64,000 nt of DNA from assembly GCA_021774075.1 (NCBI GenBank), contig JAJFJK010000038.1:4880-68879 (forward strand), in the 5' to 3' direction. The translations under genes were made by a program, and so were the position numbers. The stretch is from Nitrosomonas sp. (GTDB lineage: Bacteria > Pseudomonadota > Gammaproteobacteria > Burkholderiales > Nitrosomonadaceae). This document shows positions 13,387 to 51,205 of the stretch, one piece after another (the first letter of the stretch is position 1; every line of letters begins with the position of its first letter). The notes under the pieces were generated by a model. That model had not been told where the DNA came from. It ran no database searches and saw nothing but the letters and a program-made list of their open reading frames with translations.

Positions 13387-14355
13387 TTAATGCAACCATT
13401 GGTGATACCAAGCAGCCGTCGCACATAAACCCTGCTCCAGTGTATGAGGTGGAACCCAGTCCAACTCGTCACGTAACTTTGCATCGTTTACGCGCAACGA
13501 GCCGAGCAATTTGTCGATTTGTGCCGAACGTCCCAACACTGCTGCAGCAGTACGTAACAGACTGGGCGGAAAATAGAACGAGCGGTTTTTGCGCCCCAAT
13601 GCAAGCGCGATTTTTTTTACCAGCAACGTGGTGGAGACATCCTCACCATCCCGTACCAGGTAGGTTTGTCCTGCAGCTTTAGGGTGGGTCGCACAGGTCA
13701 TCATCGCACTCACCAGATTGCCTATATACACCAGACTGCGAGCGTTGTGCATGCCCGCCAGGGGCATCGGGATTCCTTTGTTTACCGTGTTTAAAAGGCT
13801 GAGGAAATTCCCTTTTACGCCGGGGCCATATACCAGCGGCGGACGCACGACCACTACTTCCAGGCCCGTGTCTTGCGCGATGCGCTGCAATGCTTGTTCG
13901 GCCTCCCATTTCGAGATGCCATAGGGATCCAGAGGCGCTGGCTTATCTTGTTCGGTGTAGCTGTGCTGGCCATGCGTCTCCTCGCCGTTTACCTTAACTG
14001 AGCTTACGTAAACAAACCGCTTTACCCCGGCAAGCGCTGCTTGTTGCGCCAGATGAGATGTGCCGTATAAATTGACCTTGAGAAACGCTGCCAGTGGATC
14101 AACGGCCTTATCTTTCATCACATGCACCCGCGCGGCGAGATGAATAACGACATCTACGTCGACCAATGCAGCAGCCCAATCCGTCTGGTCATTTATCTGT
14201 CCGACTGTTACTGGTTTTATGCCTGAGTTTGTGTCTGGGGAAAATTGATGTGGTGTGCGCAGAGCCGCTTTAACATGCCATCCTTGTCTGAGCATCTGCG
14301 TACATAGCGCCTGGCCGACAAAACCGCTGGCGCCAGTAACAAGAACGCTACTCAA
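13387..14355 (-). CDS. NAD-dependent sugar epimerase/dehydratase (SDR family)
   Basis: VLVTGASGFVG Rossmann motif and YGISKWEAE (YxxxK catalytic motif). Confidence 0.85.
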   Translation of the reverse strand: MSSVLVTGASGFVGQALCTQMLRQGWHVKAALRTPHQFSPDTNSGIKPVTVGQINDQTDWAAALVDVDVVIHLAARVHVMKDKAVDPLAAFLKVNLYGTSHLAQQAALAGVKRFVYVSSVKVNGEETHGQHSYTEQDKPAPLDPYGISKWEAEQALQRIAQDTGLEVVVVRPPLVYGPGVKGNFLSLLNTVNKGIPMPLAGMHNARSLVYIGNLVSAMMTCATHPKAAGQTYLVRDGEDVSTTLLVKKIALALGRKNRSFYFPPSLLRTAAAVLGRSAQIDKLLGSLRVNDAKLRDELDWVPPHTLEQGLCATAAWYHQWLH

Positions 14356-34447: not shown

Positions 34448-36715
34448 ATGGCAAAATGGTCCAAGCAACTTCTCCTGGGTGTGTTCATCGGCCTGTTCGG
34501 TGTCATCGTGAATCTGACGCCACTGGGTTTGGCGCTGGAAGAAAAGTTCGGCTTATATTGGTTGTTTCACTTACGTGGTCCAGTGACCGCGCCCAATGAT
34601 GTTGCGGTTGTTGCGATAGATCGACCTTCGGCAACTGCGCTGGATTTGCCCATTACGCCCCGGTCATGGCCGCGTGAATACCATGCGCGTTTAATAGAAA
34701 AATTAACCGCAGCTGGTGCCCGTGTGATTGTGTTTGATTTGTTGTTTGACACGCAAGGCATTGTGCCGGAAGACAATGTCAAACTTGCGCACGCAATGCA
34801 ACAAGCACGCAATGTCGTTGTTGTTGAGCGATTGGTTTTTGAGGAATCGGAATTACTTGCGGATTTTGTCGATCAACCTTATAACCGTTTTACCCAGGAA
34901 GGTACTTCCAAGCTCCTGCCAATGATTGCAGATACTGTCATGGCACACGCACCTTTTCCTTTACCCAAAGCTGCCAGAGTAAATAATTATTGGACTTTTA
35001 AGGCCGGTGCCGGTGATGTGCCAACCATGCCTGTTGCAGCATTACAGGTATATGCCTTGCCGCTGTATGATGATTTTGTTCGCTTGTTACAAAATGTAAA
35101 TCCGGCTTATGCAGCAAAATTACCCGTTGATAAGGCTGCGCTGGATATTGATGGTTTGCTTTTAACCTTACGCAATATTTTTGTAAATGATCCCCACATC
35201 GCACGCTTGATGCAAGCGGCGTTAAATCGTGACACCAATTTGGATGAGGCAAAGAAACGGGTTATTAATGCACTTCTAAATGTGTATGCCGGTGACGAGA
35301 TACGCTACATCAATTTTTATGGCCCGCCGCGTAGCGTCAAGACGGTGCCGTATTATCAGCTATTGCAATTAGACGGCAGTGAATCAATAGAAAATCACCA
35401 GCAGCAATTTGATTTCCAAGATAAAGTGGTTTTTGTCGGATTCTCTGCCGCAACACAGCCCGAGCAGGACAGAGTCAGAGATGATTATCATACAGTGTTC
35501 TCAAACCCTAATGGGCTTTTCATCAGTGGTGTTGAGATTGCTGCGACAGCGTTTGCCAATTTATTAGAAAACCGGCCTATTAGGCCTTTTCCGTTTACTG
35601 GTAGCTTGGGGCTTCTTTTTGTTCTGGGCTTTGGCATGAGTGTGGTTTTTCTGGCATTACCCAATCGCAGTTCAATAGCATTTGGCTGTTTCTTAATTTT
35701 CATTTATGCTTTCAGTGTTTTTTATCAGTTTAAACACGCAGGACTCTGGCTGCCTTTAATTGTTCCGATGTTTCTGCAATTGCCACTTGCGTTATTTGGT
35801 GCTGTATTCCTAAGATATCTTGACGCTAAAAAGTCGCGACAACAGCTGCAGGAAGCATTTGGGTATTTTCTGCCTGAGCGTGTCGTTAACGATATTGCCA
35901 AAAGCTCAGGGGCGATTTTTTCCAATACTCAATTGGTATACGGCGCTTGTCTGGCGACTGATGCAGACATGTATACGAGACTTGCCGAGAACATGGACCC
36001 AGTAGAATTAGGTCGCTTGATGAACGATTATTATGCCGTATTGTTTGAACCCGTTCGTCAGCATAATGGCATTGTCTCAGATGTTGTGGGAGATGCCATG
36101 CTTGCAATATGGACAGCTTCTGCGGCTAATATCGCTTTGCAGCGACGCGCATGTCTTGCATGTCTGGATATCGCTGAAGCTGTTGAGCGGTTCAACCAAT
36201 TCAATCAAGCCAATGGTCGAAAAATATTACCGACCCGAATTGGATTACATGCGGGTGAAATGTTACTGGGCAATATTGGTGCCATTGACCATTACGAATA
36301 TCGTGCAGTTGGCGATATGGTGAATACGAGCAATCGCATTCAAGGCATGAATAAATATCTGGGTACGCGATTATTGGTGTCCAGTGCAGTAGTCGCAGGC
36401 CTGGATGAATTTTTGATACGTCCGCTTGGTGGGTTCGTGTTGTTTGGCAAATCATCGTCGGTGGATCTGGTGGAATTGATCACACACAAACAAGCGGCTA
36501 GTAATGAACAATTGTGGCTGTGTGAAGTATTTGCCAGTGCATTGCATGCCTATCAATTACAAAAATGGCAAGAGGCCATTAAAGATTTTTCAGAAATTCT
36601 TAGAGCATTTCCAAAAGATGGGCCAGCACGATTTTTTCTGGGGCATTGTCAACGTCAGATGCAGGCACCCCCCATTGATTTGTGGAGTCCTACTATCCGT
36701 ATGGAGAGTAAATAA
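34448..36715 (+). CDS. CHASE2 sensor domain-containing class III adenylate/guanylate cyclase
   Basis: N-terminal TM segment plus a periplasmic CHASE2 domain (VAVVAIDRPS...VIVFDLLFD), followed by 3-4 TM segments. The cyclase domain has metal Asp residues (LATDADMYT, VGDAMLA) and VNTSNR. There is a TPR-like tail. Confidence 0.9.
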   Translation: MAKWSKQLLLGVFIGLFGVIVNLTPLGLALEEKFGLYWLFHLRGPVTAPNDVAVVAIDRPSATALDLPITPRSWPREYHARLIEKLTAAGARVIVFDLLFDTQGIVPEDNVKLAHAMQQARNVVVVERLVFEESELLADFVDQPYNRFTQEGTSKLLPMIADTVMAHAPFPLPKAARVNNYWTFKAGAGDVPTMPVAALQVYALPLYDDFVRLLQNVNPAYAAKLPVDKAALDIDGLLLTLRNIFVNDPHIARLMQAALNRDTNLDEAKKRVINALLNVYAGDEIRYINFYGPPRSVKTVPYYQLLQLDGSESIENHQQQFDFQDKVVFVGFSAATQPEQDRVRDDYHTVFSNPNGLFISGVEIAATAFANLLENRPIRPFPFTGSLGLLFVLGFGMSVVFLALPNRSSIAFGCFLIFIYAFSVFYQFKHAGLWLPLIVPMFLQLPLALFGAVFLRYLDAKKSRQQLQEAFGYFLPERVVNDIAKSSGAIFSNTQLVYGACLATDADMYTRLAENMDPVELGRLMNDYYAVLFEPVRQHNGIVSDVVGDAMLAIWTASAANIALQRRACLACLDIAEAVERFNQFNQANGRKILPTRIGLHAGEMLLGNIGAIDHYEYRAVGDMVNTSNRIQGMNKYLGTRLLVSSAVVAGLDEFLIRPLGGFVLFGKSSSVDLVELITHKQAASNEQLWLCEVFASALHAYQLQKWQEAIKDFSEILRAFPKDGPARFFLGHCQRQMQAPPIDLWSPTIRMESK

Positions 36716-36996: not shown

Positions 36997-39900
36997 ATGG
37001 GAATTTGTCAGATGTTTGTATTGAACTTATTTAAGAGCAATACTTCAGCGAATGCATCTGTCGGTTTTATTTTATTGGTATTTCTTGGTTTTACGGATAA
37101 AGTTTATGCGACAGAATCTTGTGAATTACCGGTGGCGCAAATTGTTTCAGCCCAGGGTGTCATTGAGTTGCGTCGTGCCAATGAAACAATTTGGCGGCAA
37201 GTAGCCATGAATGCCATACTTTGTTCTGGTGATATGATTCGCGCACGTTCACATAGCCGAGCGTCACTTCGGCTGAGCAATGAAAGTATGCTCAGACTGG
37301 ATCAGAGGACAACCATTACATTTCCCCAATCAGAACAAGATAAAGCCACCTCGCTATTGGATTTATTGAAGGGCGCGATACATATTATTACCCGCACACC
37401 CAAGCCATTCAAAGTCAGAACACCATTTATTAATGCAGTAGTCGAGGGCACCGAATTTTTTGTCGGTGTTGATGAAGACAGTACAACGCTCGTCCTTTAT
37501 GAAGGGCAAGTAACCGCTAGTAATGAACAAGGTAGTCTTGTTCTAGTTGACCATGAAGCTGCGGTTGCCACTAGAAACCAAGCGCCGCGTAAAGAAATCA
37601 TTGTGCGCCCAATAGATGCGGTGCAATGGGCGCTCTACTATCCGGCAATCATTGATTATCATCGCAACGGTAGTGCTCAAAGTGATGACCCAATTAGCTT
37701 GTTGATTCGTGAAGCAGTAGATTTGTTAACTGTTGGGCGGGTGAACGAGGCAAGGGTTGTTATTGAGCAGGTACAGGCACAGGTGGCACTCGAACCAGAC
37801 AATAGTGAAATCATTGCAATACAGGCAATCATTGCAGTGGTGCAAAATGATAAAGAGCAGGCCTTAAATCTGGCAACGCGTGCAGTTGAGTTTGACCCAA
37901 CTTCCTCAGCAGCAAAACTTGCCTTATCTTATGCGCTACAAGCGCACTTCAAAATTGAAGAGGCATTGGAAATTGTCCAGGAGGCAGTAACACTTGATTC
38001 AGATAATGCATTGTTGTGGGCCAGATTAGCTGAATTACAAATGTCTGTCGGCGATTTAGATCGTGCATTAAACGCAGCGCAACGTGCGGTGAATTTAAAT
38101 CCGGATATTGCGAAAACACAAACCGTATTAGGCTTCGCTTATTTACTGCGCATTGAAACGCAAACGGCAAAGACCATGTTTAGCAAAGCTATCCTGCTTG
38201 ATCAGGCTGACCCGATGCCAAGATTAGGGATGGGCTTAGCATTAATACGTGAAGGGGCACTGGAAGCAGGGCGTATTGAGCTAGAAATTGCAGCCAGCCT
38301 TGACCCAGCCAATTCACTGATTCGTAGTTATCTGGGCAAAGCCTATTTTGAAGAAAAACGCTATCCGCTTGCAAGTACACAGTTTAAATTGGCCAAAGAG
38401 CGCGACCCATATGACCCTACACCCTGGTTTTATGATGCCATCCAGAAACAGACTCAAAATCGCCCGGTAGAAGCATTAAAAGACATACAAAAATCAATTG
38501 AACTGAATGATAATCGCGCTGTGTATCGGTCCAGACTGCTGCTGGATCAGGATCAAGCCGGGCGTGGTTCTAGTCTGGCACGAATTTTTGGCAATCTGGG
38601 ATTTGAGAAACGTGCATTGATGGAGACTGCTAAATCCTTAAGCTTTGACCCATCCAACCATTCGGCACACCGGTTTTTATCGGATACCTATGCCAATATT
38701 CCAAGACATGAAATAGCGCGAGTAAGTGAACTACTTCAAGCGCAACTATTGCAGCCAATTAACGTAAACCCGGTGCAACCACATGCAGCCGTGCCAGATC
38801 TCAATATTATTACTGGCACTGGACCATCCGTAGCAGGTTTTAATGAGTTTGCGCCGTTGATGGAACGAAACAAACCACAACTGGTTGCTTCAGGCGTTGT
38901 TGGTAATCAGGGAACGTTGGGAAACGAAATGGTTTTTTCAACGCTCTATGACCGGACTTCAGTCAGTCTGGGGCAGTTTCACTATGAAACCAATGGTTTT
39001 CGTCCAAATAATGATCAGAAGCATAATATCTACAATGCATTTATTCAGCATGCTTTTTCATCGAAATTGAATATCCAAGCTGAAGTGCGTACGCAAGAAA
39101 AAGAACATGGTGATATTGAACTTGATTTTAATCCAATGCTTCTTGATAAAAAAGAAAGAAGAACATTCAGAAAAGATACTGCACGTTTGGGTGCTAGATA
39201 TTCACTTTCAAGAAAACAGGATATCATCGTCTCCATGATTTATGGAAACAGAAAATTTAAAGGTAACAATTTATTTCAGCTTTCACCAAACCCAAATGAA
39301 ACTAGCAATCTATATCAAGTAGAAGCGCAATATTTATTTCAGGACAAATTTTTCAACTTAATAGCAGGAGGTGGGCTATCATCAAGAAAAACTAATGACT
39401 CAAGCCCTTCTTCAGTAGTTAACGATAAATTTGAACGCGAAAATGCTTATTTATATACATTATGGAATCTGCCTAAAAATATCAGTACAACTCTAGGGTT
39501 CAGCTATAATTCATTTCATGCTGACAGAAGTAGTGTGAGCGCATATAAAATAAATGAATTTGATCCAAAATTAGGCCTGCAGTGGAATATCACCAAAGGT
39601 TTAAGATTGCGCTTGGCCTGGATTGAAACGATCAAAAATGACTTATTGATTCAACAAACCATTGAGCCGACGCAGGTGGCTGGTTTTAATCAATTTTTTG
39701 ATGATCCAAATGGAACAAAATCAAAACGCAAAAGTGTTGGCCTAGACTTTCAAATTTTTAATAACCTGTATGGTGGTGTTGAAGGCTCAGTCCGTAAATT
39801 AAAAATTCCGTCTATAGATAAAATTGGTTTTCGTGAGCAAACGGAACAAGCGTATCGTGCCTATCTGTATGGATTAATCAGCGCAAACTGGTCTGTTACC

Positions 39901-40305
39901 GGGGAATTTGAATTCGAAAGCTTTAAAAGAAGTAAACAATCCGCTGGGCTAAACCCGTCTGATATCGAGACTCTGAGTATGCCCATAAAAATTAATTATT
40001 ATAACCCTATGGGAATATTCGCCAGTATCAAAGGAACCTTTGTAAGGCAGGAAATTAAGCGAGGCAATCCCATTCGATTTGACCCAGAAATAGGTAAGAC
40101 TGAAGGCTTAAGTGATTTTTTCTTGCTGAATGCAATTGCTGGTTATAGGTTGCCATCTCGAAGAGGGCTACTCAGCTTTGAAATCAGAAATATTTTCAAT
40201 GAAGATTTTAATTATCGTAATTCGTGGTTCCAAGTTTCAGAACCAACAATACCCAGATATATTCCAAGCCGAACGTTTTCTTTACAACTCACTTTAAATT
40301 ATTAA
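36997..40305 (+). CDS. FecR-domain, TPR and C-terminal outer-membrane beta-barrel-like protein, paralogue A (1102 aa)
   Basis: Signal peptide ending ...VYA/TESCE. FecR-like domain (LCSGDMIRARSHSRASLRLSNESMLRLDQRTTITF). Multiple TPRs. C-terminal ~500 aa with alternating beta-strand pattern ending ...LQLTLNY (aromatic terminus). Confidence 0.8.
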   Translation: MGICQMFVLNLFKSNTSANASVGFILLVFLGFTDKVYATESCELPVAQIVSAQGVIELRRANETIWRQVAMNAILCSGDMIRARSHSRASLRLSNESMLRLDQRTTITFPQSEQDKATSLLDLLKGAIHIITRTPKPFKVRTPFINAVVEGTEFFVGVDEDSTTLVLYEGQVTASNEQGSLVLVDHEAAVATRNQAPRKEIIVRPIDAVQWALYYPAIIDYHRNGSAQSDDPISLLIREAVDLLTVGRVNEARVVIEQVQAQVALEPDNSEIIAIQAIIAVVQNDKEQALNLATRAVEFDPTSSAAKLALSYALQAHFKIEEALEIVQEAVTLDSDNALLWARLAELQMSVGDLDRALNAAQRAVNLNPDIAKTQTVLGFAYLLRIETQTAKTMFSKAILLDQADPMPRLGMGLALIREGALEAGRIELEIAASLDPANSLIRSYLGKAYFEEKRYPLASTQFKLAKERDPYDPTPWFYDAIQKQTQNRPVEALKDIQKSIELNDNRAVYRSRLLLDQDQAGRGSSLARIFGNLGFEKRALMETAKSLSFDPSNHSAHRFLSDTYANIPRHEIARVSELLQAQLLQPINVNPVQPHAAVPDLNIITGTGPSVAGFNEFAPLMERNKPQLVASGVVGNQGTLGNEMVFSTLYDRTSVSLGQFHYETNGFRPNNDQKHNIYNAFIQHAFSSKLNIQAEVRTQEKEHGDIELDFNPMLLDKKERRTFRKDTARLGARYSLSRKQDIIVSMIYGNRKFKGNNLFQLSPNPNETSNLYQVEAQYLFQDKFFNLIAGGGLSSRKTNDSSPSSVVNDKFERENAYLYTLWNLPKNISTTLGFSYNSFHADRSSVSAYKINEFDPKLGLQWNITKGLRLRLAWIETIKNDLLIQQTIEPTQVAGFNQFFDDPNGTKSKRKSVGLDFQIFNNLYGGVEGSVRKLKIPSIDKIGFREQTEQAYRAYLYGLISANWSVTGEFEFESFKRSKQSAGLNPSDIETLSMPIKINYYNPMGIFASIKGTFVRQEIKRGNPIRFDPEIGKTEGLSDFFLLNAIAGYRLPSRRGLLSFEIRNIFNEDFNYRNSWFQVSEPTIPRYIPSRTFSLQLTLNY

Positions 40306-40318
40306 CAGGAGAAATAAA

Positions 40319-40771
40319 ATGAAGTCAATTAAAATAGTTTGTGCAATTATTCTCAGTATTGTAGCAATTTTTTCAGTTTTTGTAGTTGGTAAGCTTGCAT
40401 CAAGTGGTTTTCCAGTAAAAGCTTATGTGCTCGGAGGTGAACTAGACTTCATTAGCAAAGTTGAACCAACATTGTCCGAGAAAAGATCTTTTACAATAGA
40501 TTTAGATCAACCAGAAGAAGCTTTTCATCACATATTGGTTGCAAAAACAATTGACCCAGAAAAAAATGATGTTAAATATGATTTATATACCCCAAGACAT
40601 TTAATTGCAAATTACACTCCACATATGGAACAACATGAAGATTCATTCTTACAAATAGTTAATGTCGCGTTTGCTCAATCTGTAAGCAGTTGTAACCATC
40701 AAGATATAATTTGTGGACACTACACGGATAACAACGGAAATCAAGGTAGTGGTTGTTGGTGTAGCCCGTAG
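40319..40771 (+). CDS. Small signal-anchored or secreted protein with a Cys-rich C-terminus (...GSGCWCSP)
   Basis: AGGAG RBS, 13 nt after the paralogue A stop. N-terminal hydrophobic segment and 4 Cys in the last 30 residues. Confidence 0.6.
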   Translation: MKSIKIVCAIILSIVAIFSVFVVGKLASSGFPVKAYVLGGELDFISKVEPTLSEKRSFTIDLDQPEEAFHHILVAKTIDPEKNDVKYDLYTPRHLIANYTPHMEQHEDSFLQIVNVAFAQSVSSCNHQDIICGHYTDNNGNQGSGCWCSP

Positions 40772-41061
40772 CCAAGGTTATATTGACCATCATGAGGCAA
40801 AACAGTCGGTCTAAAGCCCGTGGTTTGGCTCATTCATTAGTCGTCCCTGAAAGCCCTCAACCCGCTAATAAAATTAAATGATGTACGTTCTTTTGATGAT
40901 CATTTCGACTGAGAATGGTAGATGAAATACTGTTTTCTTGTCGAAATGGTTAACAAAAATGTGTGCTCAAATAATCCATATACCCGGGTATTTTTTTGAA
41001 AAGAACTATAGTCAGAATGGGGTAAAAAACTCAGCCTAGTTATCATGGCGGAAAGCTTTTG

Positions 41062-41811
41062 CTAATACAAGAAAACATTATCTAATACACCGATGAGCTT
41101 AAAATCGCCATTAAAGTGGTTGTTGATAATACTGGCCGCTTCATTTGTTACAAGTTCAAACATCTTATCGTCAGTCCGCACATCTGGCTCAGGTGTATCA
41201 TTTAATACTTCGAAAAGTAATGCTCGAAATTCTTCAGTATTTTCTTTTTTATTAGAAAATTCATTTATTTGTGCCAATTCAGATTCATCAAGTGCTGAAA
41301 ATAAATTAATTAGTGATCCATAAAATAAAGATTCAACACTTTCTTCTGTTGCTGGAACGTTGTTTAAGTGTCCAACACCTAATTCTTCAGTATCATAGAT
41401 TTTATCATCACTTTGAAGGGTATATATAGGGCCCAAAAAAAGCGGATAGATCCCATCAAAAGAAAGTAGGGATTGAACTTGCTCACTTAGAGAAGAGTTT
41501 GATAAAACCTCTATGTTATTATTGAAATTTACTAGATTTTCTAAAGAATCTGGATCAGAGTTAAATAAAATACTTGTATTATCTAGCTCACGTGGATCAA
41601 GATCATTAAATGTAAAATATTCAGTAATAACCTCCGTCGGAAAATTAGTAATTTCATTCAGCATCGCATTTGTTACACCACTTTCCCGGGCTGCAGCAAA
41701 TATCACTTCCGGCTGATCAATGTTTATAGTAATAAAGTCAGCTGCTTGTTGAATTGAAACTCCTCGTTTGGCTAATTGTTCTTCTGCGGATATAAATTGT
41801 TTTGTTGACAT
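41062..41811 (-). CDS. Acidic hypothetical protein (249 aa from the RBS-supported start)
   Basis: The ATG at 41811 is preceded by AGAGGGGAGG. Highly acidic with no recognisable motifs. The track ORF extends to 41982 without an RBS. Confidence 0.5.
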   Translation of the reverse strand: MSTKQFISAEEQLAKRGVSIQQAADFITINIDQPEVIFAAARESGVTNAMLNEITNFPTEVITEYFTFNDLDPRELDNTSILFNSDPDSLENLVNFNNNIEVLSNSSLSEQVQSLLSFDGIYPLFLGPIYTLQSDDKIYDTEELGVGHLNNVPATEESVESLFYGSLINLFSALDESELAQINEFSNKKENTEEFRALLFEVLNDTPEPDVRTDDKMFELVTNEAASIINNHFNGDFKLIGVLDNVFLY

Positions 41812-42206
41812 AAAACCTCCCCTCTTATAGATAATAATAAAAGCTATGGTTTGATTGGATTGAACTTCACGTTGCGCACTATTTAACTCCAAATAACGCT
41901 GATCAAACACCCCGACGATAGAGTTATCTGCCACAAGACTATTAATAAGATTAAGCGATTTATCAATGATCAATCTTATCACTGTTATATCAGGCTTTCT
42001 GGCTGACTTCTCAAGTTAATCTGATCTGACAGGATAGTATGTTTTGCAAGATGCGTATATTAGTTTTTCATCAATCCACAGTAAAGTTTCGGATCATGAG
42101 TCAATATTTTTTCATATAGATTACGCAATAAGATCACTTGTCAAATCATGTGATTTGAGCATCCAAAATTTGCATCTACCATTTTAAGCAACTCATTAGC
42201 TTTTTT

Positions 42207-42321
42207 TGTGCGTTTTATCACATACGAAATGTGGTTCAGTCGCTAAACTCAGATTACGTTTGATTTGCATCAATCAGCAAAATATCCAGAATACCCTCAA
42301 GGTTATTTCTCTCGTATAATG
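42207..42321 (+). promoter_or_regulatory. Candidate cNMP-regulator-dependent promoter of paralogue B
   Basis: TGTGCgttttaTCACA at 42207-42222. Perfect TTGATttgcATCAA at 42260-42273. Conserved block TATTTCTCTCGTATAATG at 42304-42321. Confidence 0.45.
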
Positions 42322-42419
42322 CACCGAAAGTCTAAATTAGGTTCTTGAGTACGCAGCTCCTTTTGGAAAGTGAGTTCAGTGTTAGTACTCACAACGCCAA
42401 CTGCGAGAGATAGATTCAA

Positions 42420-45400
42420 ATGAGAACATGTTGGATATTGAAGCTGAACTTACTGAATAACAGTAAGTTAGCAATTACGTTTGTAATATGTTTTTTATTT
42501 TTCTTTATTGGTTTTGTAGACAGGACTTATGCAGCAGAATCATGTGAATCATCACCAGTGGCGCAAATCGTTTCAGTTCAGGGGACGATTGAATTGCGTC
42601 GTGCGAATGAAAGTGTTTGGCGGCCAGCAGCTATGAATACCGCACTTTGTTCGGGTGACATGCTTCGGGCGCGTTCACACAGTCGCGCAGCACTGCGTTT
42701 GAGCAATGAAAGTATGCTACGGCTGGATCAGCGCACCACGCTGTCATTTCCGCAAGAAGAAAAAGCCATTTCGCTGTTGGATCTGGTCAAGGGTGCAATA
42801 CATGTTATTACCCGCACATCCAAGCCTTTTGAAATCAGAACGCCATTTCTTAATGGGGCTGTTGATGGCACCGAATTTTTTGTTGGTGTTGATGAAGATA
42901 GCACACGATTGGTTATTTATGAAGGTCAGGTAACCGCCAGTAATGATCAGGGCAGTCTTGTTCTGGTTGATCATGAAGCGGCAATTGCCACCAAGCATCA
43001 GGCCCCACAAAAAGAAGTCATCATGCGCCCAACCGATGCGGTGCAATGGGCGCTGTATTATCCCGCCATTATTGATTATCAGCTTGATGCTGGTATTGAG
43101 CGCGATGCTATCAGTACACTGATTCGTGATGCGTCGCATTTGTTGACAATCGGGCGGGTTGATGAAGCCACAACAGCAATCAAACAAGCACTTGAAATAG
43201 CGCCGGATAAGGGTAGGGGCAGCAGTGACGCCTATGCTTTAAAGTCGATGATTGCCATGGTGCAAAACGACAAAGACGCAGCGCTGCATTTCGCGACACA
43301 GGCCGTCGAACTGAATCAAACTTCAGCGGCTGCATGGTTGGCGTTGTCGTATATTCAGCAAGCGAATTTTGAAATTGATGACGCACTGGCCAGTGTGCAG
43401 GAAGCGGTGGCGATAGACGCACAAAATGCCCTGGCCTGGGCGCGTCTGGCTGAATTACACATGTCCACGGGTTATTTGAAGCATGCTTTGGATGCGGCGC
43501 AACATGCCGTGAATTTCAACCCCGCTTTGGCTAAAACACAAACGGTATTGGGTTTCGCCCATTTGCTGAAAATCAACACCGAAGAAGCCATTGCAATCTT
43601 TACGCAAGCCATCCAGCTCGATCAGGCCGACCCCATGCCCCGGCTGGGTTTAGGTTTGGCGTTGATACGCGAAGGCGAGCTTGAAGCCGGGCGGGTTGAA
43701 CTGGAAATTGCAGCTAGTCTTGATCCAGCCAATTCGCTGATACGCAGTTACTTGGGTAAAGCGTATTTTGAAGAAAAACGCTATGCATTGGCTGAAACCC
43801 AGTTTGATCTGGCCAGGGAGCGCGACCCGTATGATCCGACACCGTGGTTTTACGATGCCATCCAAAAACAAACACAAAACAGGCCGGTGGAAGCACTCAG
43901 CGATATCCAAAAATCGATTGAACTGAATGATAATCGGGCGGTGTATCGATCCAAGTTATTACTGGATCAGGATCAGGCCGGGCGTGGATCAAGCCTGGCG
44001 CGTATTTATGACAATCTGGGTTTTGAGAAACGCGCCCTGATGGAAACGGCCAGATCATTAAGTGCAGACCCGGCCAATCATTCAGCGCACCGCTTTTTGT
44101 CGGATGCCTACACCAATATCCCACGCCACGAAGTCGCGCGCGTTAGTGAGCTGCTGCAAGCGCAATTGTTGCAACCGATCAATGTGAACCCCGTGCAACC
44201 GCACCTTGCCGTGGCGGATCTCAATATCATCACCGGCACCGGCCCAACCGCAGCAGGCTTTAACGAATTTGCCCCGCTCATGGAGCGTAACAAACCGCAG
44301 TTGGTTGGCTCGGCGATTGTCGGCAGTAACAGCACCGTGGGTAATGAAACAGTACTCTCAGCATTGTATGACCGCGCTTCGGTCAGCATCGGTCAATATC
44401 ATTTTCAATCCGACGGATTTCGTGAAAATAATGATCAGAAACACAATGTCTACAATGCCTTCATGCAGTATGCAGTGACACCGCGCTTAAATGTTCAGGC
44501 GGAAATACGTCGGCGCAAGACTGAGAATGGCGATTTGCTACTGGATTTCGATACAACCAATTTTAGAAATCAACGACGAATTCTAGAACAAGATACGGTA
44601 CGTGTAGGCGCAAGATACGCGTTGTCACCACGCCAGGATTTGATTGTTTCAGCCATGTATGCAGATCGCCAGGAGGACATCACTTTAGCACCTGCACCCG
44701 GTGTTGGCATTAATTCAGGGATAAAAGATAAGGGATATCAAATAGAAGGACAATATTTATTCCGCGAAGACTATTTTAATCTTGTTGCAGGTGGTGGCGT
44801 TTACAAAATTGATGCGCAGAGCCAAGTGCAAGTTTGTCAGGGACCTTGTTTTCCCTCTCCAGTAATAAATTTTACGAGAGAACGCGAAAATGCATATCTC
44901 TATTCAAATTTCAGTTACCCGGAAAACGTAACGGCAACGCTGGGTGTGAGCTACGATGCATTTAAAGATGTTGTCGATGATAAGTTTGATACATTTAATC
45001 CAAAATTTGGTCTGCAATGGAATATCAGCGATATGTTCCGTCTGCGTCTTGCTTGGTTTGAAACAGTCAAGGCTGCATTGATTACCAATCAAACGCTGGA
45101 ACCCACGCAAGTGGCCGGTTTTAATCAATTGTTTGATGACCTGAGTGGCACCCGGGCGCGACGCATGGGGGTAGGTTTGGATGCTTATTTCACCAAAAGT
45201 ATCTACGGTGGGTTGGAAGTATCTGAGCGTGACTTAAAGGTTCCTTTTGCTGATGGGGTAACAGCGGCATTATTGGCGAGTGAGAAACAACAAGAAAGAC
45301 TTTATCGTTCCTATCTGTACTGGTTGCCGCATGTCCATTGGACGATCAATGGCGAGTTTCAGTTTGAGCGCTATACGCGTAATGCAACGAGTATTGGTGG

Positions 45401-45743
45401 TGCTGACAAACCATTTCAGATTCAAACGCTCAGCGCCCCATTGGCGATCAATTATTTTCACCCGAGTGGTTTTTTCAGCAAATTCACCACAACGTATGTA
45501 CAACAAAATCTAAAGCGGCTAGCTGCTTCGTCATTGAGAGACGGCACCGATGATTTTGTATTGTTTGACGCGGCAATTGGTTACCGGTTGCCCAACCGCA
45601 GAGGCCTGGTCAGTCTGGAAGGCAGAAACCTGAGTAACGAGGATTTCTTTTACAGGAATGTCAATTTTCAGATAAATGAAGCGATTACGCCTCGTTTTAT
45701 CCCGACACGCACAATTTTTGCGCGTGTTACTTTGAACTTTTAA
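42420..45743 (+). CDS. FecR-domain, TPR and C-terminal outer-membrane beta-barrel-like protein, paralogue B (1107 aa)
   Basis: Same architecture as 36997-40305. Long identical stretches include DPANSLIRSYLGKAYFEEKRY, DPYDPTPWFYDAIQKQTQNRPVEAL and ARVSELLQAQLLQPINVNPVQPH. Ends ...ARVTLNF. Confidence 0.8.
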   Translation: MRTCWILKLNLLNNSKLAITFVICFLFFFIGFVDRTYAAESCESSPVAQIVSVQGTIELRRANESVWRPAAMNTALCSGDMLRARSHSRAALRLSNESMLRLDQRTTLSFPQEEKAISLLDLVKGAIHVITRTSKPFEIRTPFLNGAVDGTEFFVGVDEDSTRLVIYEGQVTASNDQGSLVLVDHEAAIATKHQAPQKEVIMRPTDAVQWALYYPAIIDYQLDAGIERDAISTLIRDASHLLTIGRVDEATTAIKQALEIAPDKGRGSSDAYALKSMIAMVQNDKDAALHFATQAVELNQTSAAAWLALSYIQQANFEIDDALASVQEAVAIDAQNALAWARLAELHMSTGYLKHALDAAQHAVNFNPALAKTQTVLGFAHLLKINTEEAIAIFTQAIQLDQADPMPRLGLGLALIREGELEAGRVELEIAASLDPANSLIRSYLGKAYFEEKRYALAETQFDLARERDPYDPTPWFYDAIQKQTQNRPVEALSDIQKSIELNDNRAVYRSKLLLDQDQAGRGSSLARIYDNLGFEKRALMETARSLSADPANHSAHRFLSDAYTNIPRHEVARVSELLQAQLLQPINVNPVQPHLAVADLNIITGTGPTAAGFNEFAPLMERNKPQLVGSAIVGSNSTVGNETVLSALYDRASVSIGQYHFQSDGFRENNDQKHNVYNAFMQYAVTPRLNVQAEIRRRKTENGDLLLDFDTTNFRNQRRILEQDTVRVGARYALSPRQDLIVSAMYADRQEDITLAPAPGVGINSGIKDKGYQIEGQYLFREDYFNLVAGGGVYKIDAQSQVQVCQGPCFPSPVINFTRERENAYLYSNFSYPENVTATLGVSYDAFKDVVDDKFDTFNPKFGLQWNISDMFRLRLAWFETVKAALITNQTLEPTQVAGFNQLFDDLSGTRARRMGVGLDAYFTKSIYGGLEVSERDLKVPFADGVTAALLASEKQQERLYRSYLYWLPHVHWTINGEFQFERYTRNATSIGGADKPFQIQTLSAPLAINYFHPSGFFSKFTTTYVQQNLKRLAASSLRDGTDDFVLFDAAIGYRLPNRRGLVSLEGRNLSNEDFFYRNVNFQINEAITPRFIPTRTIFARVTLNF

Positions 45744-45755
45744 AAAGGAAAAAAA

Positions 45756-46007
45756 ATGAATGATTTACCTGAAGCAGCAAAAAAAGCGTTGGAAGAAGCA
45801 GGTGTAGACGTTGCGGCGGTCATTTGTGTTGATAAGCAGGGTAAAACACATATGATGAAAGACAAGAATGTGAGCGGTAACGATACGAAGTTCCCTATTG
45901 AAACCACCGCGATTGAAGACATTACGCCGATGAGTATGGTGCGACATAAAGGATCGCAGTGTGTAACCATTATTATCGGCGGTGTGTCTTATACAATCTG
46001 CTGGTAA
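45756..46007 (+). CDS. Small protein (83 aa) ending in CVTIIIGGVSYTICW
   Basis: AAGGA RBS, 12 nt after the paralogue B stop. No signal peptide. The C-terminal 15 residues are shared with the next small ORF. Confidence 0.6.
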   Translation: MNDLPEAAKKALEEAGVDVAAVICVDKQGKTHMMKDKNVSGNDTKFPIETTAIEDITPMSMVRHKGSQCVTIIIGGVSYTICW

Positions 46008-46090
46008 CAGTCGTTTTATTTAGGCGGGGTTCGGTATACAGTTCTGTATTGATCCCCGTTTGTTGTTTGGATTAGAAAACACTGTATTTG
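45960..46090 (+). repeat. Repeat unit 1: core-peptide coding end plus 3' flank with hairpin
   Basis: tgtgtaaccattattatcggcggt...ctggtaacag...ggcgggg..gttctgtattgatccccg... is repeated at 46219-46350. Confidence 0.8.
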
Positions 46091-46143
46091 AGTACGTTCT
46101 GCATCCTGTTTTTTTTGGTACTACTATTAAAGGGGAGAATCAA

Positions 46144-46266
46144 ATGAAGAGAAAAATCATTATTCTTATCAGTACTATTGTGATGGCTGGTTATATGTCA
46201 AGTGGATTTGCTTATGATTGTGTCACTATTATTATCGGTGGTTTGCCTATGACATTCTGCTGGTAA
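46144..46266 (+). CDS. Secreted mini-protein precursor (40 aa), predicted mature 17-mer YDCVTIIIGGLPMTFCW
   Basis: AAGGGGAG RBS 6 nt upstream of the ATG at 46144. Typical Sec signal MKRKIIILISTIVMAGYMSSGFA. Two Cys residues in the mature part. Confidence 0.6.
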   Translation: MKRKIIILISTIVMAGYMSSGFAYDCVTIIIGGLPMTFCW

Positions 46267-46350
46267 CAGTTTTTTATTCAGGCGGGGATTGGTACGTAGT
46301 TCTGTATTGATCCCCGCTTGTGCTGTTTGAATTAGCAAATGCAGTATTTT
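46219..46350 (+). repeat. Repeat unit 2: core-peptide coding end plus 3' flank with hairpin
   Basis: Direct repeat of 45960-46090. The hairpin gcggggat ... atccccgc has an 8-bp stem. Confidence 0.8.
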
Positions 46351-46502: not shown

Positions 46503-47222
46503 ATGTCTACACGGCACATATCAAAAGAGCGGGCCGTTGCAATGCTCTCGGCGGTCAAGGAATTTCAAGGTTTGTCTTTAGTAGACTTGGAAACGATCAA
46601 TGAGGCTTGTAACTGGCAGCGTTATGAGGCGAATGAAGATATCGTCAGATATCATGATCATACGAATAGCGCGTTCTTCATTGCGCAGGGTGAAATTCGT
46701 GTCTCGTATAGTGCCTTGTCAGGCCATGAGGTCATTTTATGCGACTTGTCGGCTGGTGAGATGTTTGGTGAGTTGACGGCGATTGATGGCGAGCCCCGCT
46801 CGGCTTCTGTTGTTGCGAAAATAAGTACATTATTGGCTTGCATGCCAGCGGCTGCTTTTTTGAATTTAATTTCTTCGAATCGGCAAGTTGCCGAGGCGAT
46901 CCTCAAACGTCTGACGGGACAAATTCGCCGTCTTACCGAGCGGGTTTATGATTTCAGTACATTGGCTGTGCGTAATCGTATTCAAGCTGAAATATTGCGT
47001 TTGGCACGAAATAATATGACCGTCGACAATACAGCGGTTATTTCCCCTGCACCCACACATTTGGATGTCGCTAATTTTGTCAGTACACATCGTGAGGCAG
47101 TGACGCGTGAGCTGAAACATTTAGCCGGAGAGAGTCTGGTTATTCGCAAGGGCCAGGATTTGCATGTGCTGGATGTCGGCAGATTAGCCGACATGGTTAA
47201 TGAAGTGCGGGGTTGTAGTTAG
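46503..47222 (+). CDS. Crp/Fnr-family cNMP-binding transcriptional regulator
   Basis: cNMP-binding site FGELTAIDGEPRSASVVA. HTH with recognition helix HREAVTRELK (CRP-like RE..R). The stop codon TAG lies inside the terminal repeat of the adjacent MITE. Confidence 0.85.
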   Translation: MSTRHISKERAVAMLSAVKEFQGLSLVDLETINEACNWQRYEANEDIVRYHDHTNSAFFIAQGEIRVSYSALSGHEVILCDLSAGEMFGELTAIDGEPRSASVVAKISTLLACMPAAAFLNLISSNRQVAEAILKRLTGQIRRLTERVYDFSTLAVRNRIQAEILRLARNNMTVDNTAVISPAPTHLDVANFVSTHREAVTRELKHLAGESLVIRKGQDLHVLDVGRLADMVNEVRGCS

Positions 47223-47463: not shown

Positions 47464-48753
47464 TTGTGGCAAACTTCTAGCCTAATTTATCACTGGCTTA
47501 TTTTATTCGTGTCTGCTTACGAGCTTTTCATTGGTTTGCGTTATACACGTGCTAAACGCCGCAACCACTTCATTTCATTTATCTCATTAATTTCCTTATT
47601 GGGTATCACGCTGGGAATGACTGCGCTCATTACCGTGATGTCTGTTATGAATGGTTTTCAGGAAGAGGTGCGTGCGCGTATTCTCGGCGTGGCGTCGCAT
47701 GTGCAGGTGAGTGGTATGGATGGCACCCTAAACAATTGGCCACGTACTGCGGCTGAAGCGGCTCAGCACCCATTCGTGGAAGGTGTTGCGCCGTATGTGA
47801 GTGCGCAGGGCATGTTGTCACATAATCAAGTGGTGCAAGGCGTGATTGTGCGTGGGATTCTGCCGGATAGAGAGGATGACGTGGCGGATTTTGCCGATTT
47901 GATGGTCAGTGGTGAGCTGAATCATCTGGTGCCGGGAGAGTTTGGTATCGTCATTGGTATGGAATTGGCGCGTTCGATGGGTGCTTTCAGGGGCGACAGG
48001 ATTGTATTAATTTCGCCGCAGGGCCAGGTCACACCGGCGGGTATATTGCCGCGCCTGAAACAGTTTACCGTTGTCGGGATTTTTGAGGCCGGGCATTTTG
48101 AATATGATTCGGGATTGGTGTTGATTCATATGGCGGATGCGCAGAATCTCTATCGTATGGGTGATGATGTTTCTGGTGTACGCTTGAAGTTGCATGATAT
48201 GTTTCAAGCGCCACAGGTGGTTGCGGAACTGCCCGCCATTGTGTCGAACACTGTTTTTATCAGCGATTGGACACGCCAACATGCCAATTATTTCCGCGCG
48301 ATACAAATTGAGAAACGCATGTTATCGTTGATTCTCGCCTTGATTATTGCGGTTGCGGCATTCAATATTGTTTCCACACTGGTGATGGCGGTTACCGATA
48401 AACAATCCGACATTGCGATTCTACGCACACTGGGTGCCAGCCCGCGCAGTATTATGAAAGTGTTTATTGTGCAGGGCACTTTCATCGGAGTTTTTGGCAC
48501 TATTCTGGGCGTTGTTGGCGGTGTGCTACTGGCTTATAACGTGGGGGAAGTGGTGGCATTTATTGAATGGCTATTCAGTGTGCAATTCCTGTCGCATGAA
48601 ATTTATTACATCAGTAAGATCCCAACCGACCCACAGCTCAACGATATCGTAACCGTCGCGGTGGTTTCCTTCATTTTAAGTTTGCTGGCAACCATTTATC
48701 CGAGTTATCGCGCGTCCAAAGTGAATCCGGCAGAGGCGCTGCGCTATGAGTAA
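47464..48753 (+). CDS. Lipoprotein-releasing system permease, LolC/E family (probable GTG start at 47509)
   Basis: [24 protein letters not shown]-terminal signature. MacB/FtsX-type 4-TM topology with a periplasmic domain. Followed by lolD with overlapping stop/start. Confidence 0.9.
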
Positions 48754-49441
48754 TATCGTGCTTTCCTGCCATGACTTGCATAAAAGTTTTTTTCAAGGTG
48801 AGTTAGAGGTGCCGGTACTGAAGGGCGTGAATCTGCAATTGGCTAAAGGTGAAATGATGGCCATTGTCGGCGCTTCCGGTTCGGGTAAAAGTACCTTACT
48901 GCATTTATTAGGTGGGCTGGATGAACCCACTAGTGGCGAGATAAATATTTTAGGTCAAAATATTGCCGGGATTGATGAAGAAAAGAAATGCCAATTGCGC
49001 AATGGTTCGCTGGGTTTCATCTATCAATTCCATCATTTGTTGCCAGAATTCAGTGCGCTAGAGAATGTGGCTATGCCGTTGCTGATCAGGCGGCTGAAAA
49101 AAAGCGAGGCTTATGATCGCGCCACAGAAATATTGCAACAAGTTGGTCTGGCGCATCGCTTAACGCATACGCCCAGCGAGTTATCGGGTGGTGAACGTCA
49201 ACGTGCTGCGGTAGCACGCGCACTGGTGACGCAACCGGCCTGTATTCTGGCGGATGAGCCAACCGGCAACCTTGACCGGCAAACGGCAGAAGGTGTTTTT
49301 GAATTAATGCTGACGTTGAATCAAAAAGCCAATGCCAGTTTGATTATTGTCACGCATGATTTGCAACTCGCGCATCGTGCAGAGCATGTGAAACAACTGG
49401 TTGATGGCGTGTTGTGTGATGTATCAAAATTGAAGCAATGA
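48746..49441 (+). CDS. lolD: Lipoprotein-releasing system ATP-binding protein LolD
   Basis: [26 protein letters not shown] and [11 protein letters not shown] motifs. Overlaps the upstream LolC/E gene. Confidence 0.9.
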
Positions 49442-49486
49442 TCGCATATTTTATTTCCCCCCTTATTGAATATTCTTAGTTAGTTT

Positions 49487-51205
49487 ATGCGCACCCTTTT
49501 TACTTATATTATGGTTTTTCCCCGGCGCAGCGCTTTCGTGTTGTTTGCGCTGTTGATGGCCGGTATTGCTGAAGCGCTCAGTTTGACGGCTTTACTGCCT
49601 TTGTTGTCGATAGCGGTGGGAGAAACGAGTGATTCAGGGATCGGTAAATTTATGGGCGACGCGCTGCTGAGTATTGGTATCGAACCGACCTTGGATATGA
49701 TATTGATCTTTATTGTTGGCGGCATGTTTACCAAGGGATTGATCCTGCTTATTGCGAATCGTCAGGTGGGTTACACCGTTGCACATGTCGCCACGGCCTT
49801 GCGCTTGAATTTGATTGAAGCGTTGCTGGCCAGCCGCTGGCAGTATTACTTGCGTCAACCGGTTGGTTCATTGGCTAATTCAGTGGCAACGGAAGCCTAT
49901 CGTGCAGCCAACGGGTTTGAGCATAGTGTGAATGTTTTGGCCTTATCCGTACAAGTGTTTGTTTATGCGATAGTGGCATTGTTTATCTCCTGGCAAGCTA
50001 CCTTGGCTTCGCTTTTTATCGGGCTGTTTTTATTGATTGCATTAAATCGTTTGGTGCGTGCGACGCGCCGGGCTGGTAACAAGCAAACACAATTACTGCG
50101 TGATTTGTTATCTTATTTATCTGACGTACTAGGTTCCGTAAAATCACTCAAGGCAATGGCGCGTGATAATGTTGCTGATGCCATTTTGCATGATCAAACC
50201 AAACAACTGGAAAAAGCCACGCGTCGCGAGGTGATGAACAGAGCAGCTTTGGCAGCTTTGCAAGAACCGATTCTGACCGCGCTGACAGCGGCTGGCTTAT
50301 ATCTTGCATTAGTCGTTTGGGAGCTTTCTTTGCCGGAAGTCATGGTGATGGTTTTTTTGCTCACGCGTATTCTTGGGTTACTTAATAAGACCCAACGCCG
50401 GTATCAACAATTGACCGTGCAGGAAAGCGCCTATTGGGCGCTGCGCAAAGCAGCGGAAGACGCGGCAGCCGAAGCGGAGAATACAACCGGAATACTGGAA
50501 CCAACGTTGCAGAAAGGGATTACGCTACAGCATGTCAAATTTGATTACGGCGACAAAACAATTTTCAAAGACTTGAATATCGAAATACCGATCAATTCGT
50601 TTACCGCTGTGATGGGGCCGTCCGGTGCGGGTAAAAGCACCTTGCTCGATTTGCTGTGCGGATTGACTGAACCCGGTTCGGGTGAAATTAAAATTGACGG
50701 GGTGTCACTGCACGATATTAATTTACGCCAATGGCGTCATATGATCGGCTATGTGTCTCAAGACACTATCTTGTTACATGACAGCGTTATGAATAACATC
50801 ATAGTAGGCGAGCCTTCATTGACGGCAGAAGATGCCGAACGTGCATTACGCCAAGCGGGAGCGTGGGATTTTGTTAGTAAACTGTCAGATGGGATGCAAA
50901 CCACAGTTGGAGAGCGTGGCGGCATGTTGTCAGGCGGACAGCGTCAACGTATCGCCATCGCGCGCGCACTGGCCCATAGCCCTTCCTTCCTGATTATGGA
51001 TGAACCAACCAGCGCCCTGGACCCGGAAAGCGAACAAACCATCTGTGAAACATTACAGGAATTGTCAAAAGACTTAACGATTATCGCCGTATCGCACCAG
51101 CCTGCTGTCATCAATGCGGCGGATAATGTGTTTATCCTGTCGAATGGGGAAGCAGAAGCGTTGTCGCATGTGCCGGATATGCATGAATCCGGTAGGTTGC
51201 AATAA
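49487..51205 (+). CDS. ABC exporter, fused permease/ATPase (MsbA-like, 572 aa)
   Basis: 6-TM N-terminal domain. NBD with GPSGAGKSTLL, LSGGQRQRIAIARAL and IMDEPTSALD. No peptidase domain. Confidence 0.85.
   Translation: MRTLFTYIMVFPRRSAFVLFALLMAGIAEALSLTALLPLLSIAVGETSDSGIGKFMGDALLSIGIEPTLDMILIFIVGGMFTKGLILLIANRQVGYTVAHVATALRLNLIEALLASRWQYYLRQPVGSLANSVATEAYRAANGFEHSVNVLALSVQVFVYAIVALFISWQATLASLFIGLFLLIALNRLVRATRRAGNKQTQLLRDLLSYLSDVLGSVKSLKAMARDNVADAILHDQTKQLEKATRREVMNRAALAALQEPILTALTAAGLYLALVVWELSLPEVMVMVFLLTRILGLLNKTQRRYQQLTVQESAYWALRKAAEDAAAEAENTTGILEPTLQKGITLQHVKFDYGDKTIFKDLNIEIPINSFTAVMGPSGAGKSTLLDLLCGLTEPGSGEIKIDGVSLHDINLRQWRHMIGYVSQDTILLHDSVMNNIIVGEPSLTAEDAERALRQAGAWDFVSKLSDGMQTTVGERGGMLSGGQRQRIAIARALAHSPSFLIMDEPTSALDPESEQTICETLQELSKDLTIIAVSHQPAVINAADNVFILSNGEAEALSHVPDMHESGRLQ

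Follow-up and report, generated by a model that had tools for sequence, protein, structure and literature searches.

Background

The closest described relatives of the locus considered here are outer-membrane β-barrel proteins that act together with CHASE2-domain signalling proteins. In S. meliloti the outer-membrane barrel protein NsrA is required for the response of CHASE2 cyclases to a protein signal, uL2, and the Crp-like protein Clr serves as the output (PMC7529298, PMC13001267). Gene clusters combining a CHASE2 cyclase with a FecR-domain outer-membrane protein are known from Campylobacterota (PMC9239204), and in Burkholderia FecR-domain proteins are paired with CHASE2 histidine kinases (PMC5192318). 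A small partner protein finds no mention in the accessible literature on NsrA and CHASE2, a body that does not cover the original NsrA paper (PMC5952392). Here we analyse a stretch of 64,000 nucleotides of Nitrosomonas sp. DNA (contig JAJFJK010000038.1, positions 4,880 to 68,879; hereafter the window, with position 1 its first letter), in which two tandem NsrA-like receptor genes are each directly followed by a small gene whose product has a cysteine-bearing C-terminus. These small genes are genuine; in several phyla they keep the position directly behind a receptor gene, and their type co-varies with the receptor barrel. On this comparative evidence we lean towards regarding their products as cognate, co-diversifying partners or ligands of the receptor β-barrels.

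The genes on which the comparison rests are the following:

34448-36715, plus strand: CHASE2-domain nucleotide cyclase of 755 residues, the first gene of the module (Pfam CHASE2, 3e-30; Guanylate_cyc, 8e-10)
36997-40305, plus strand: NsrA-like outer-membrane protein, paralogue 1, 1102 residues (Pfam FecR, TPR, TonB_dep_Rec_b-barrel)
40319-40771, plus strand: 150-residue small protein, type 2, starting 13 nt past the paralogue 1 stop
42420-45743, plus strand: NsrA-like outer-membrane protein, paralogue 2, 1107 residues (Pfam FecR, TPR, TonB_dep_Rec_b-barrel)
45756-46007, plus strand: leaderless 83-residue small protein, type 1, starting 12 nt past the paralogue 2 stop
46503-47222, plus strand: Crp/Fnr-family regulator (Pfam cNMP_binding, 4e-19; HTH_Crp_2)

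Both receptor paralogues, which are 62% identical, consist of a signal peptide, a FecR domain, TPR repeats and a C-terminal β-barrel, in that order. From its gene content, the window on balance appears to hold a Nitrosomonas-type version of the NsrA, CHASE2-cyclase and Crp (Clr) module that signals from the envelope to a cyclic nucleotide monophosphate (cNMP), with two receptor units and the Crp/Fnr-family regulator as its likely output. It shares with the NsrA, CyaK (CyaD1, CyaD2) and Clr system a FecR-TPR-barrel outer-membrane protein encoded beside a CHASE2 cyclase and a Crp-family cNMP regulator, and NsrA itself is known to take a protein as its input (PMC7529298, PMC13001267). A tblastn search against plasmids recovered from S. 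meliloti pSymB a FecR-domain protein of 1202 residues, with the same order of FecR, TPR and barrel regions and a CHASE2 open reading frame (ORF) directly downstream of it, which on size and position we take to be NsrA and CyaK. The BLASTP match of paralogue 2 to this protein is collinear but weak (30% identity over 175 residues of the FecR region, E 2e-15; elsewhere 23% across the TPR region and 29% at the end of the barrel). The S. meliloti system differs from the window in its low similarity and in gene order, which is reversed in the window with the cyclase first and two tandem receptor paralogues, and it has no small Cys-hairpin gene between nsrA and cyaK, whereas each receptor of the window has one. 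In the pSymB of S. meliloti ml45 (L013, 10167-12470) the CHASE2 cyclase lies in two overlapping frames, with CHASE2 in 10522-11718 and the cyclase domain in a different frame; this might reflect either a frameshift in the strain or a sequencing error. The PLSDB table, whose annotation is incomplete, lists no gene at this cyclase.

The module also resembles FecA-FecR-FecI cell-surface signalling, where an outer-membrane barrel is likewise linked to a signalling protein of the inner membrane through a periplasmic domain of FecR type. It departs from that system in the fusion of FecR to the barrel protein itself and in the inner-membrane partner, a CHASE2 cyclase, and neither an ECF sigma factor nor a TonB-dependent plug nor an STN signalling domain was found.

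Results and discussion

A small gene with a cysteine-bearing C-terminus behind NsrA-like receptor genes

A scan of species-representative genomes yielded 78 loci with full-length homologues of the large gene at 40-72% identity, mostly from Nitrosomonas, Nitrosospira and Nitrosovibrio, but also from Methylococcales, Nitrospirota, Methylomirabilota, Binatia and several deltaproteobacterial lineages. Of 92 large genes, 60 are followed by an ORF of at least 50 residues whose ATG lies no more than 40 nt, and usually 10-20 nt, past the stop. The products of this slot fall into 14 BLAST clusters, with the family of the 83-residue protein forming cluster 1 (30 members). A C-x(6-18)-C pattern within 8 residues of the end is present in 45 of the 60 slot ORFs, as against 5.5 +/- 2.2 (maximum 14) in shuffled sequences. 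At loci from distant phyla similar ORFs lie somewhat further downstream, and end e.g. in ...NPTCGWYFFGGRWYWLCW or ...GSTCTIVWNPATRRYQRVCG. An earlier note on this DNA had tied the small proteins to the FecR-TPR-barrel genes and called for a search of other genomes for ORFs that end in CW; ORFs with a Cys...Cys C-terminus do stand behind homologous large genes in Nitrosomonadaceae, and also in Nitrospirota, Methylomirabilota, Deltaproteobacteria and Gammaproteobacteria. In a Methylomirabilota metagenome-assembled genome (L088, around 13350-14500) two tandem small paralogues (171 and 176 codons from stop to stop), both ending in ...HPGSTC...RRY.RVC[GS], stand behind the receptor gene, an independent tandem duplication in the same slot.

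The tie goes beyond position, in that the type of partner co-varies with the barrel. When each large protein was assigned its nearest neighbour by barrel sequence (residues 660-1109), in 46 of 56 cases their partners fell into one and the same cluster, whereas the N-terminal FecR-TPR region (residues 40-640) gave 24 of 56; with permuted partner labels the mean was 15.4 and the maximum 28. Partner similarity likewise rises with barrel identity (Spearman 0.37, permutation maximum 0.155) but shows no such trend with N-terminal identity (Spearman -0.05), and the partial correlation with the barrel given the N-terminal part is 0.51. Paralogue 1 (36997-40305) and its homologue in L010 (262-3570), which have different partner types, are 87% identical up to about residue 650 and only 38-53% identical in most of the barrel. 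Taken together, the tracking of barrel by partner type and this mosaic pair indicate that the barrel and the small gene form a variable unit on a conserved FecR-TPR part. The receptor genes are mosaic, which suggests that barrel and small gene move as one cassette.

The window is one of nine two-receptor loci (the others being L018, L019, L043, L045, L050, L051, L054 and L062), each with one exported and one leaderless partner. The exported partners at these loci are lipoproteins or membrane-anchored; several of the loci are mutually related, and in two cases the leaderless ORF is found 130-160 nt downstream.

The 83-residue protein and the type-1 family

The three small ORFs, their Cys-bearing C-termini and the direct repeat of about 130 nt pointed out in the earlier note were all recovered in the window. 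The second of the ORFs, at 45756-46007, has neither an N-terminal hydrophobic segment nor a signal peptide, and cannot be extended N-terminally because its stop-to-stop frame opens directly at the stop of the large gene. It ends in ...SQCVTIIIGGVSYTICW, or in longer form ...CVTIIIGGVSYTICW. The first search for this protein recovered 11 homologues at 53-86% identity, conserved over their full length, with C24, C69, C82 and W83 invariant. A profile search enlarged the family to 28 proteins, Nitrosomonas being the only source named, and an exhaustive profile search to 71 representative clusters at E <= 1e-3. The motif common to this type-1 family is ...DK-x-G...FPI-x-T...GS-x-C...(G/N)G...C, and the family profile matches the window ORF over its full length (E 1.5e-39), including the DK-x-G hairpin, the FPI-x-T segment and the GS-x-C...(G/N)G...C end. 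The ratio of nonsynonymous to synonymous substitution rates (dN/dS) against three orthologues is 0.12-0.17. The 83-residue ORF is a genuine gene of an unannotated family. Profile hits to giant multi-repeat proteins (P0046, P0062, P0065, P0080, P0095) were set aside as what we take to be spurious strand-turn-strand matches in surface proteins with Ig-like or TIG repeats.

The window ORF shares the frame of the large gene, with one TAA and four codons between them (45741-45758). Stop-codon readthrough fusing the barrel to the 83-residue domain was considered and dropped, as relatives do not preserve the shared frame: in L002 and L014 the two genes are read in different frames, and two tandem stops are present in L001.

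AlphaFold2, run with an alignment of 51 sequences, predicts a single compact domain (mean predicted local distance difference test score, pLDDT, 93.8; predicted template modelling score, pTM, 0.69) formed by a helix (residues 6-14) and five main strands. The last two predicted strands, 69-74 and 77-82, form an antiparallel hairpin with a two-residue turn at G75-G76, and by register C69 lies opposite C82 at the hairpin ends. A C-terminal hairpin stapled by a C69-C82 disulfide is thus plausible in the model. The residues that vary most among close homologues are 77-79, at the tip of this hairpin, while the rest is conserved. Pfam and NCBIfam returned no match for either the 83-residue or the 150-residue protein, and Pfam searches with 51 and 12 family members gave nothing but one stray FhuF_C match at 0.007. 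Both models of the 83-residue protein were compared with the Protein Data Bank (PDB) using Foldseek, which gave no match at E <= 0.001 (template modelling score <= 0.35) and returned no STN or FecA signalling domain. A PDB sequence profile search found no solved relative; its best hit, a CBS-pair protein at E 0.014, was judged to be a local motif resemblance.

Typical type-1 members are proteins of 80-160 residues that are either leaderless or carry lipoprotein or Sec signals. Classing signal peptides by simple pattern rules, with starts taken at the first ATG, we obtained 49 leaderless, 39 lipoprotein (lipobox) and 10 Sec-exported or anchored forms among 98 distinct members. The Cys69/Cys82 pair is retained in 42 of the 49 leaderless members. 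A third cysteine, in the column of residue 24 (window 45825-45827), occurs in 26 of the 49 leaderless members and in none of the 49 exported ones. The leaderless proteins may coordinate a metal or remain in the reduced state.

The earlier note had further likened this protein to a precursor made of a leader and a core, and we therefore weighed the possibility of a product resembling ribosomally synthesized and post-translationally modified peptides (RiPPs), processed to a short modified or disulfide-bonded peptide. Such a reading could draw on the small size of the ORF, its conserved Cys-containing C-terminus and the GG dipeptide within the motif. However, all 83 residues are conserved and the most variable ones lie within the hairpin itself, the confident prediction is of one folded domain in which the C-terminal strands are part of the sheet with no separable leader and core, and many family members are ordinary lipoproteins. 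Moreover, neither the window nor the syntenic loci (including L007 and L010) encode a modification enzyme, a leader peptidase or C39 peptidase, or a dedicated exporter; the neighbours in the window are genes for a CDF transporter, the cyclase, the receptors, the Crp protein and LolCDE-like proteins. A RiPP-like precursor is hence extremely improbable, and we reject the RiPP or bacteriocin interpretation on account of the folded single-domain prediction and the missing maturase, peptidase and exporter genes nearby.

The 150-residue protein

The protein behind paralogue 1 (40319-40771), which ends in ...CNHQDIICGHYTDNNGNQGSGCWCSP, combines a conserved, hydrophobic N-terminal membrane anchor without a lipobox with a C-terminal C125-x6-C132-x13-C146-W-C148 motif. 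Its one close homologue is 50% identical, retains all four C-terminal cysteines and lies between a barrel gene directly 5' of it, which has 67% identity to paralogue 1, and a convergent homologue of the 306-residue ORF described below. The corresponding BLAST cluster (cluster 2) has 10 members, all encoded directly behind NsrA-like genes; the nine other proteins are of 143-183 residues, with an N-terminal anchor and a C-x6-C...C-[WYQTG]-C end. Among barrels, that of paralogue 1 is nearest to those that have a partner of the 150-residue type.

The 150-residue and 83-residue proteins had been presumed in the earlier note to belong to one family. They share the motif and the position, but BLASTP relates them only at E=1, the family hidden Markov model gives no match to the 150-residue protein, and hhalign of the two alignments yields a probability of 21% over 45 columns, with the Cys motif outside the aligned part. 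At the level of sequence, homology between them is thus not demonstrable, and the term family holds for motif and position only.

Origin of the 40-codon ORF

Downstream of the 83-residue gene lies a third, much shorter ORF within a direct repeat:

45960-46090, plus strand: direct repeat copy A, the last 48 coding nt of the 83-residue gene and its 3' flank
46023-46058, plus strand: GC-rich hairpin 1, after the 83-residue gene (-22.4 kcal/mol, z -3.9 against shuffles), terminator-like with a weak U tract
46144-46266, plus strand: 40-codon ORF (remnant), which keeps the ribosome-binding site (RBS), the signal peptide and the final 17 codons
46219-46350, plus strand: direct repeat copy B, the last 48 coding nt of the remnant ORF and its 3' flank
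46281-46316, plus strand: hairpin 2, with an 18-bp stem (-30.4 kcal/mol, z -6.2 against shuffles), terminator-like

The ATG at 46144 lies 6 nt 3' of AAGGGGAG, a strong RBS, and the product would comprise a Sec-type signal peptide, MKRKIIILISTIVMAGYMSSGFA, followed by the 17-mer YDCVTIIIGGLPMTFCW; the ORF ends at 46266. The repeat is 81% identical in its coding part (45960-46016 versus 46219-46275) and 86% in the flank (46014-46063 versus 46272-46321), and similarity extends, by eye, to about 46090 and 46350.

The earlier note had taken this as a core and its terminator copied together onto different N-terminal parts, an account that does not survive comparison with orthologous loci. In L001, a metagenome contig of 37.7 kb with genes for a CDF transporter, the CHASE2 cyclase, the large gene, the 83-residue gene, a second small gene, the Crp protein and LolCDE in this order, the second small gene encodes 131 residues, in which a signal peptide and a linker precede a second, complete copy of the domain that ends in CVTIVIGGVPHTFCW; L002-L004 encode a 128-residue equivalent. 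In DNA alignments to L001 and L002 the window retains the RBS, the start of the signal peptide, the final 17 codons and the terminator, and lacks about 270 nt in frame, a net loss of 91 codons. L092 and L093, whose 83-residue genes are 86% and 81% identical to that of the window, have no second small gene at all and the Crp gene comes next. Consistent with this, the family profile matches the 40-residue product only at its C-terminal end (E 3e-4), which marks it as a fragment of the family. At their 3' ends, the two copies in the window resemble each other (81-84%) as closely as they resemble their orthologues (69-84%), and this is why only a core plus terminator appears duplicated. The tandem pair evidently arose by duplication of the whole gene including its hairpin, after which the second copy stayed complete, was truncated or was lost. 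The 40-codon ORF is accordingly the in-frame deletion remnant of a secreted full-length paralogue of the 83-residue protein, a paralogue that is dispensable in this lineage. P0013, a 216-residue ORF from JGI and Logan contigs, contains a truncated secreted copy of the domain, then what is left of a signal peptide and then a complete copy, and is evidently another rearrangement between tandem paralogues.

The ORF could nevertheless still function, being translated, exported by Sec and cleaved after GFA so that the 17-mer would act as a disulfide hairpin and minimal receptor ligand. The deletion is in frame and has left a strong RBS, a plausible signal peptide with its G-F-A cleavage site, both cysteines and the terminator hairpin, and the retained part is the most conserved motif of the family. 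Yet an in-frame outcome is expected in one of three cases beforehand, and the pattern among relatives, full-length in L001/L002 and wholly absent in L092/L093, is one of loss. No other truncated copy was seen among the 91 loci covered, and the deletion junction had no match in JGI metagenome contigs. The model further places both strands in the sheet of an 83-residue domain rather than in a free module; as it corresponds to just two strands of a larger sheet, the 17-mer is unlikely to be stable alone. We therefore consider a functional 40-codon gene very unlikely. The most eye-catching element of the window, the 17-mer "core", is a decay product and not a peptide gene.

As regards the hairpins, the terminator scan flags only hairpin 2; both stems are stable and both U tracts are interrupted. 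The hairpin is also found 3' of the orthologous genes in L001, L002 and L092. An origin as a dispersed repeat or a known RNA was rejected, given that the window holds just two hairpin copies and that an Rfam search of the repeat and hairpin region gave no match. The hairpin segments (46005-46075 and 46264-46335, with their counterparts in L001, L002 and L092) are 62-81% conserved between paralogues and orthologues while the paralogous proteins are only about 50% identical, so that the hairpin may have a role beyond that of a terminator.

Proposed mechanism and alternative explanations

We propose that the window holds two receptor units: in the first, barrel paralogue 1 would work with the membrane-anchored 150-residue protein, which has two probable C-terminal disulfides, and in the second, barrel paralogue 2 with the leaderless 83-residue protein and its Cys69-Cys82 hairpin with a variable tip. 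Each small protein would bind its own barrel through the Cys-bounded hairpin, and the conserved FecR-TPR arm in the periplasm might then pass on the occupied state to the CHASE2 domain of the cyclase encoded upstream, with the resulting cNMP acting on the Crp-like regulator. From which side of the membrane the partner acts is something we infer rather than observe.

Pairings of this general kind have precedents. TbpA/TbpB, SusC/SusD and LptD/LptE are bipartite outer-membrane receptors in which a cognate partner is encoded alongside the barrel. The loci described here resemble them in that the small partner gene lies directly behind the barrel gene, partner and barrel co-diversify, and about 40% of type-1 members (39/98 by the pattern rules) are predicted lipoproteins like TbpB, SusD or LptE. 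They differ in that the partners in the window are leaderless (83 residues) or membrane-anchored (150 residues) rather than lipoproteins, in that there is no relation of sequence or fold, and in that the proposed output is signalling, not transport. ComC/ComD and AgrD/AgrC are polymorphic peptide-receptor pairs of quorum sensing, in which the ligand gene adjoins that of the receptor, as the small genes do here, and many specificity types vary in step with the receptor's sensing portion. Unlike those peptides, proteins of the window type are folded domains of 80-270 residues rather than short processed peptides and come without processing or export machinery; their receptor is an outer-membrane barrel, and a ligand role is for them a candidate role only.

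Several points weigh against a partnership between small protein and barrel. The main difficulty is one of localisation: the 83-residue protein carries no export signal, and 49 of the 98 family members are leaderless, which is hard to square with an encounter at an outer-membrane barrel. Localisation of the partner changes from locus to locus (cytoplasmic, inner-membrane-anchored, lipoprotein or Sec-secreted), which makes a single common binding mode uncertain, and these assignments come from the simple pattern rules and first-ATG starts given above. Because the 3' end of the receptor gene, which codes for the barrel, adjoins the small gene, the co-variation may in part reflect linkage rather than contact, and the survey counts are not phylogenetically independent. 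Nor is the partner universal, as no small gene of this kind separates nsrA from cyaK in S. meliloti.

Two other explanations of the linkage have to be set against this evidence. The small proteins might be released, self-encoded signals: leaderless forms, including the 83-residue protein, would leave the cell by lysis, in vesicles or by some route as yet unknown, and, once they had oxidised to the disulfide form, kin nearby would sense them from outside through the cognate barrel, giving polymorphic private signal-receptor pairs comparable to pherotypes or "necrosignals". The NsrA of S. meliloti senses an externally supplied cytoplasmic protein, the ribosomal protein uL2, and activity is likewise seen with cell extracts from many organisms (PMC7529298). 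The retention of Cys69/Cys82 in most leaderless members, where a cytoplasmic disulfide is not expected, is in line with such a fate, as are the variable hairpin tip among close homologues, the co-variation of many partner types with the barrel, the sole surface-exposed part of the receptor, and the combination of one leaderless and one exported partner in all nine two-receptor arrays. There is, however, no known export route, and a cysteine at position 24 that is confined to leaderless forms fits a reduced cytoplasmic or metal-binding protein. Membrane-anchored partners such as the 150-residue protein could not act from outside, and barrels that are 70-76% identical have either lipoprotein or leaderless partners. 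Release as a signal thus seems unlikely, though the retained Cys pair and the NsrA precedent lead us to keep a kin or damage signal open.

The alternative that the linkage is purely genomic we hold to be quite unlikely. The small proteins would then act elsewhere, the leaderless ones for instance on the cyclase in its cytoplasmic portion or on an unrelated target, and the co-variation would stem from adjacency and from block recombination with the barrel-coding region. The frequency of leaderless partners and the heterogeneous localisation classes would be accommodated, and a breakpoint near residue 650 of the large gene would move the barrel and the downstream gene together. On the other hand, a small Cys-pair ORF occupies the same slot across several phyla, with the 10-20-nt gaps typical of co-translation, which argues for a function shared with the receptor, and no association with partner type is seen for the N-terminal region, which the same gene encodes just 2 kb away. 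A cognate partnership between small protein and barrel accordingly remains the reading to which we incline.

Neighbouring genes

Of the wider neighbourhood, a cyclase homologue stands beside the large gene, mostly directly upstream, in 57 of 80 loci, and a Crp-like gene is present in 29 of 80. One further ORF in the window recurs with the small genes:

41062-41982, minus strand: convergent, acidic ORF of up to 306 residues, with a probable start (MSTKQF) at about 41811

It has no match in Pfam or NCBIfam. Homologues on the opposite strand just 3' of the small gene were found in 25 of 80 loci, and also in L005 and L010, and in arrays with one exported partner the homologue usually lies behind that partner. 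It may be a further component of the module. After the Crp gene, the window (47464-51205) encodes LolC/E-like and LolD-like proteins and a 572-residue ORF of ABC exporter type; L001 has genes of matching size in the same order, with a 565-residue product containing Pfam ABC_membrane and ABC_tran. There is no sign that these genes belong to the module.

Conclusions

What appears to be new here is a hitherto undescribed component, a small protein whose diversification goes hand in hand with that of the barrel in NsrA-like receptors, and annotation gains at least two small-protein families without a counterpart in Pfam, NCBIfam or the PDB. There is a slim chance that ammonia oxidisers and several other phyla carry polymorphic, self-encoded pairs of protein signal and receptor, in which the co-evolving barrel of an NsrA-like receptor would recognise a small, often leaderless protein with a disulfide hairpin, set free by kin that are damaged or lysing, and the CHASE2 cyclase and the Crp-like regulon would thereby be switched on. 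If true, these would be the first genetically encoded cognate ligands for CHASE2 pathways and would constitute a kin- or damage-sensing channel. More generally, the inputs of CHASE2 sensor domains and of NsrA-type receptors are largely unknown, the sole worked example, that of S. meliloti, pointing to a protein signal; an unannotated small gene that is fixed in position and diversifies with the receptor barrel across phyla offers a concrete candidate for such a partner or ligand.

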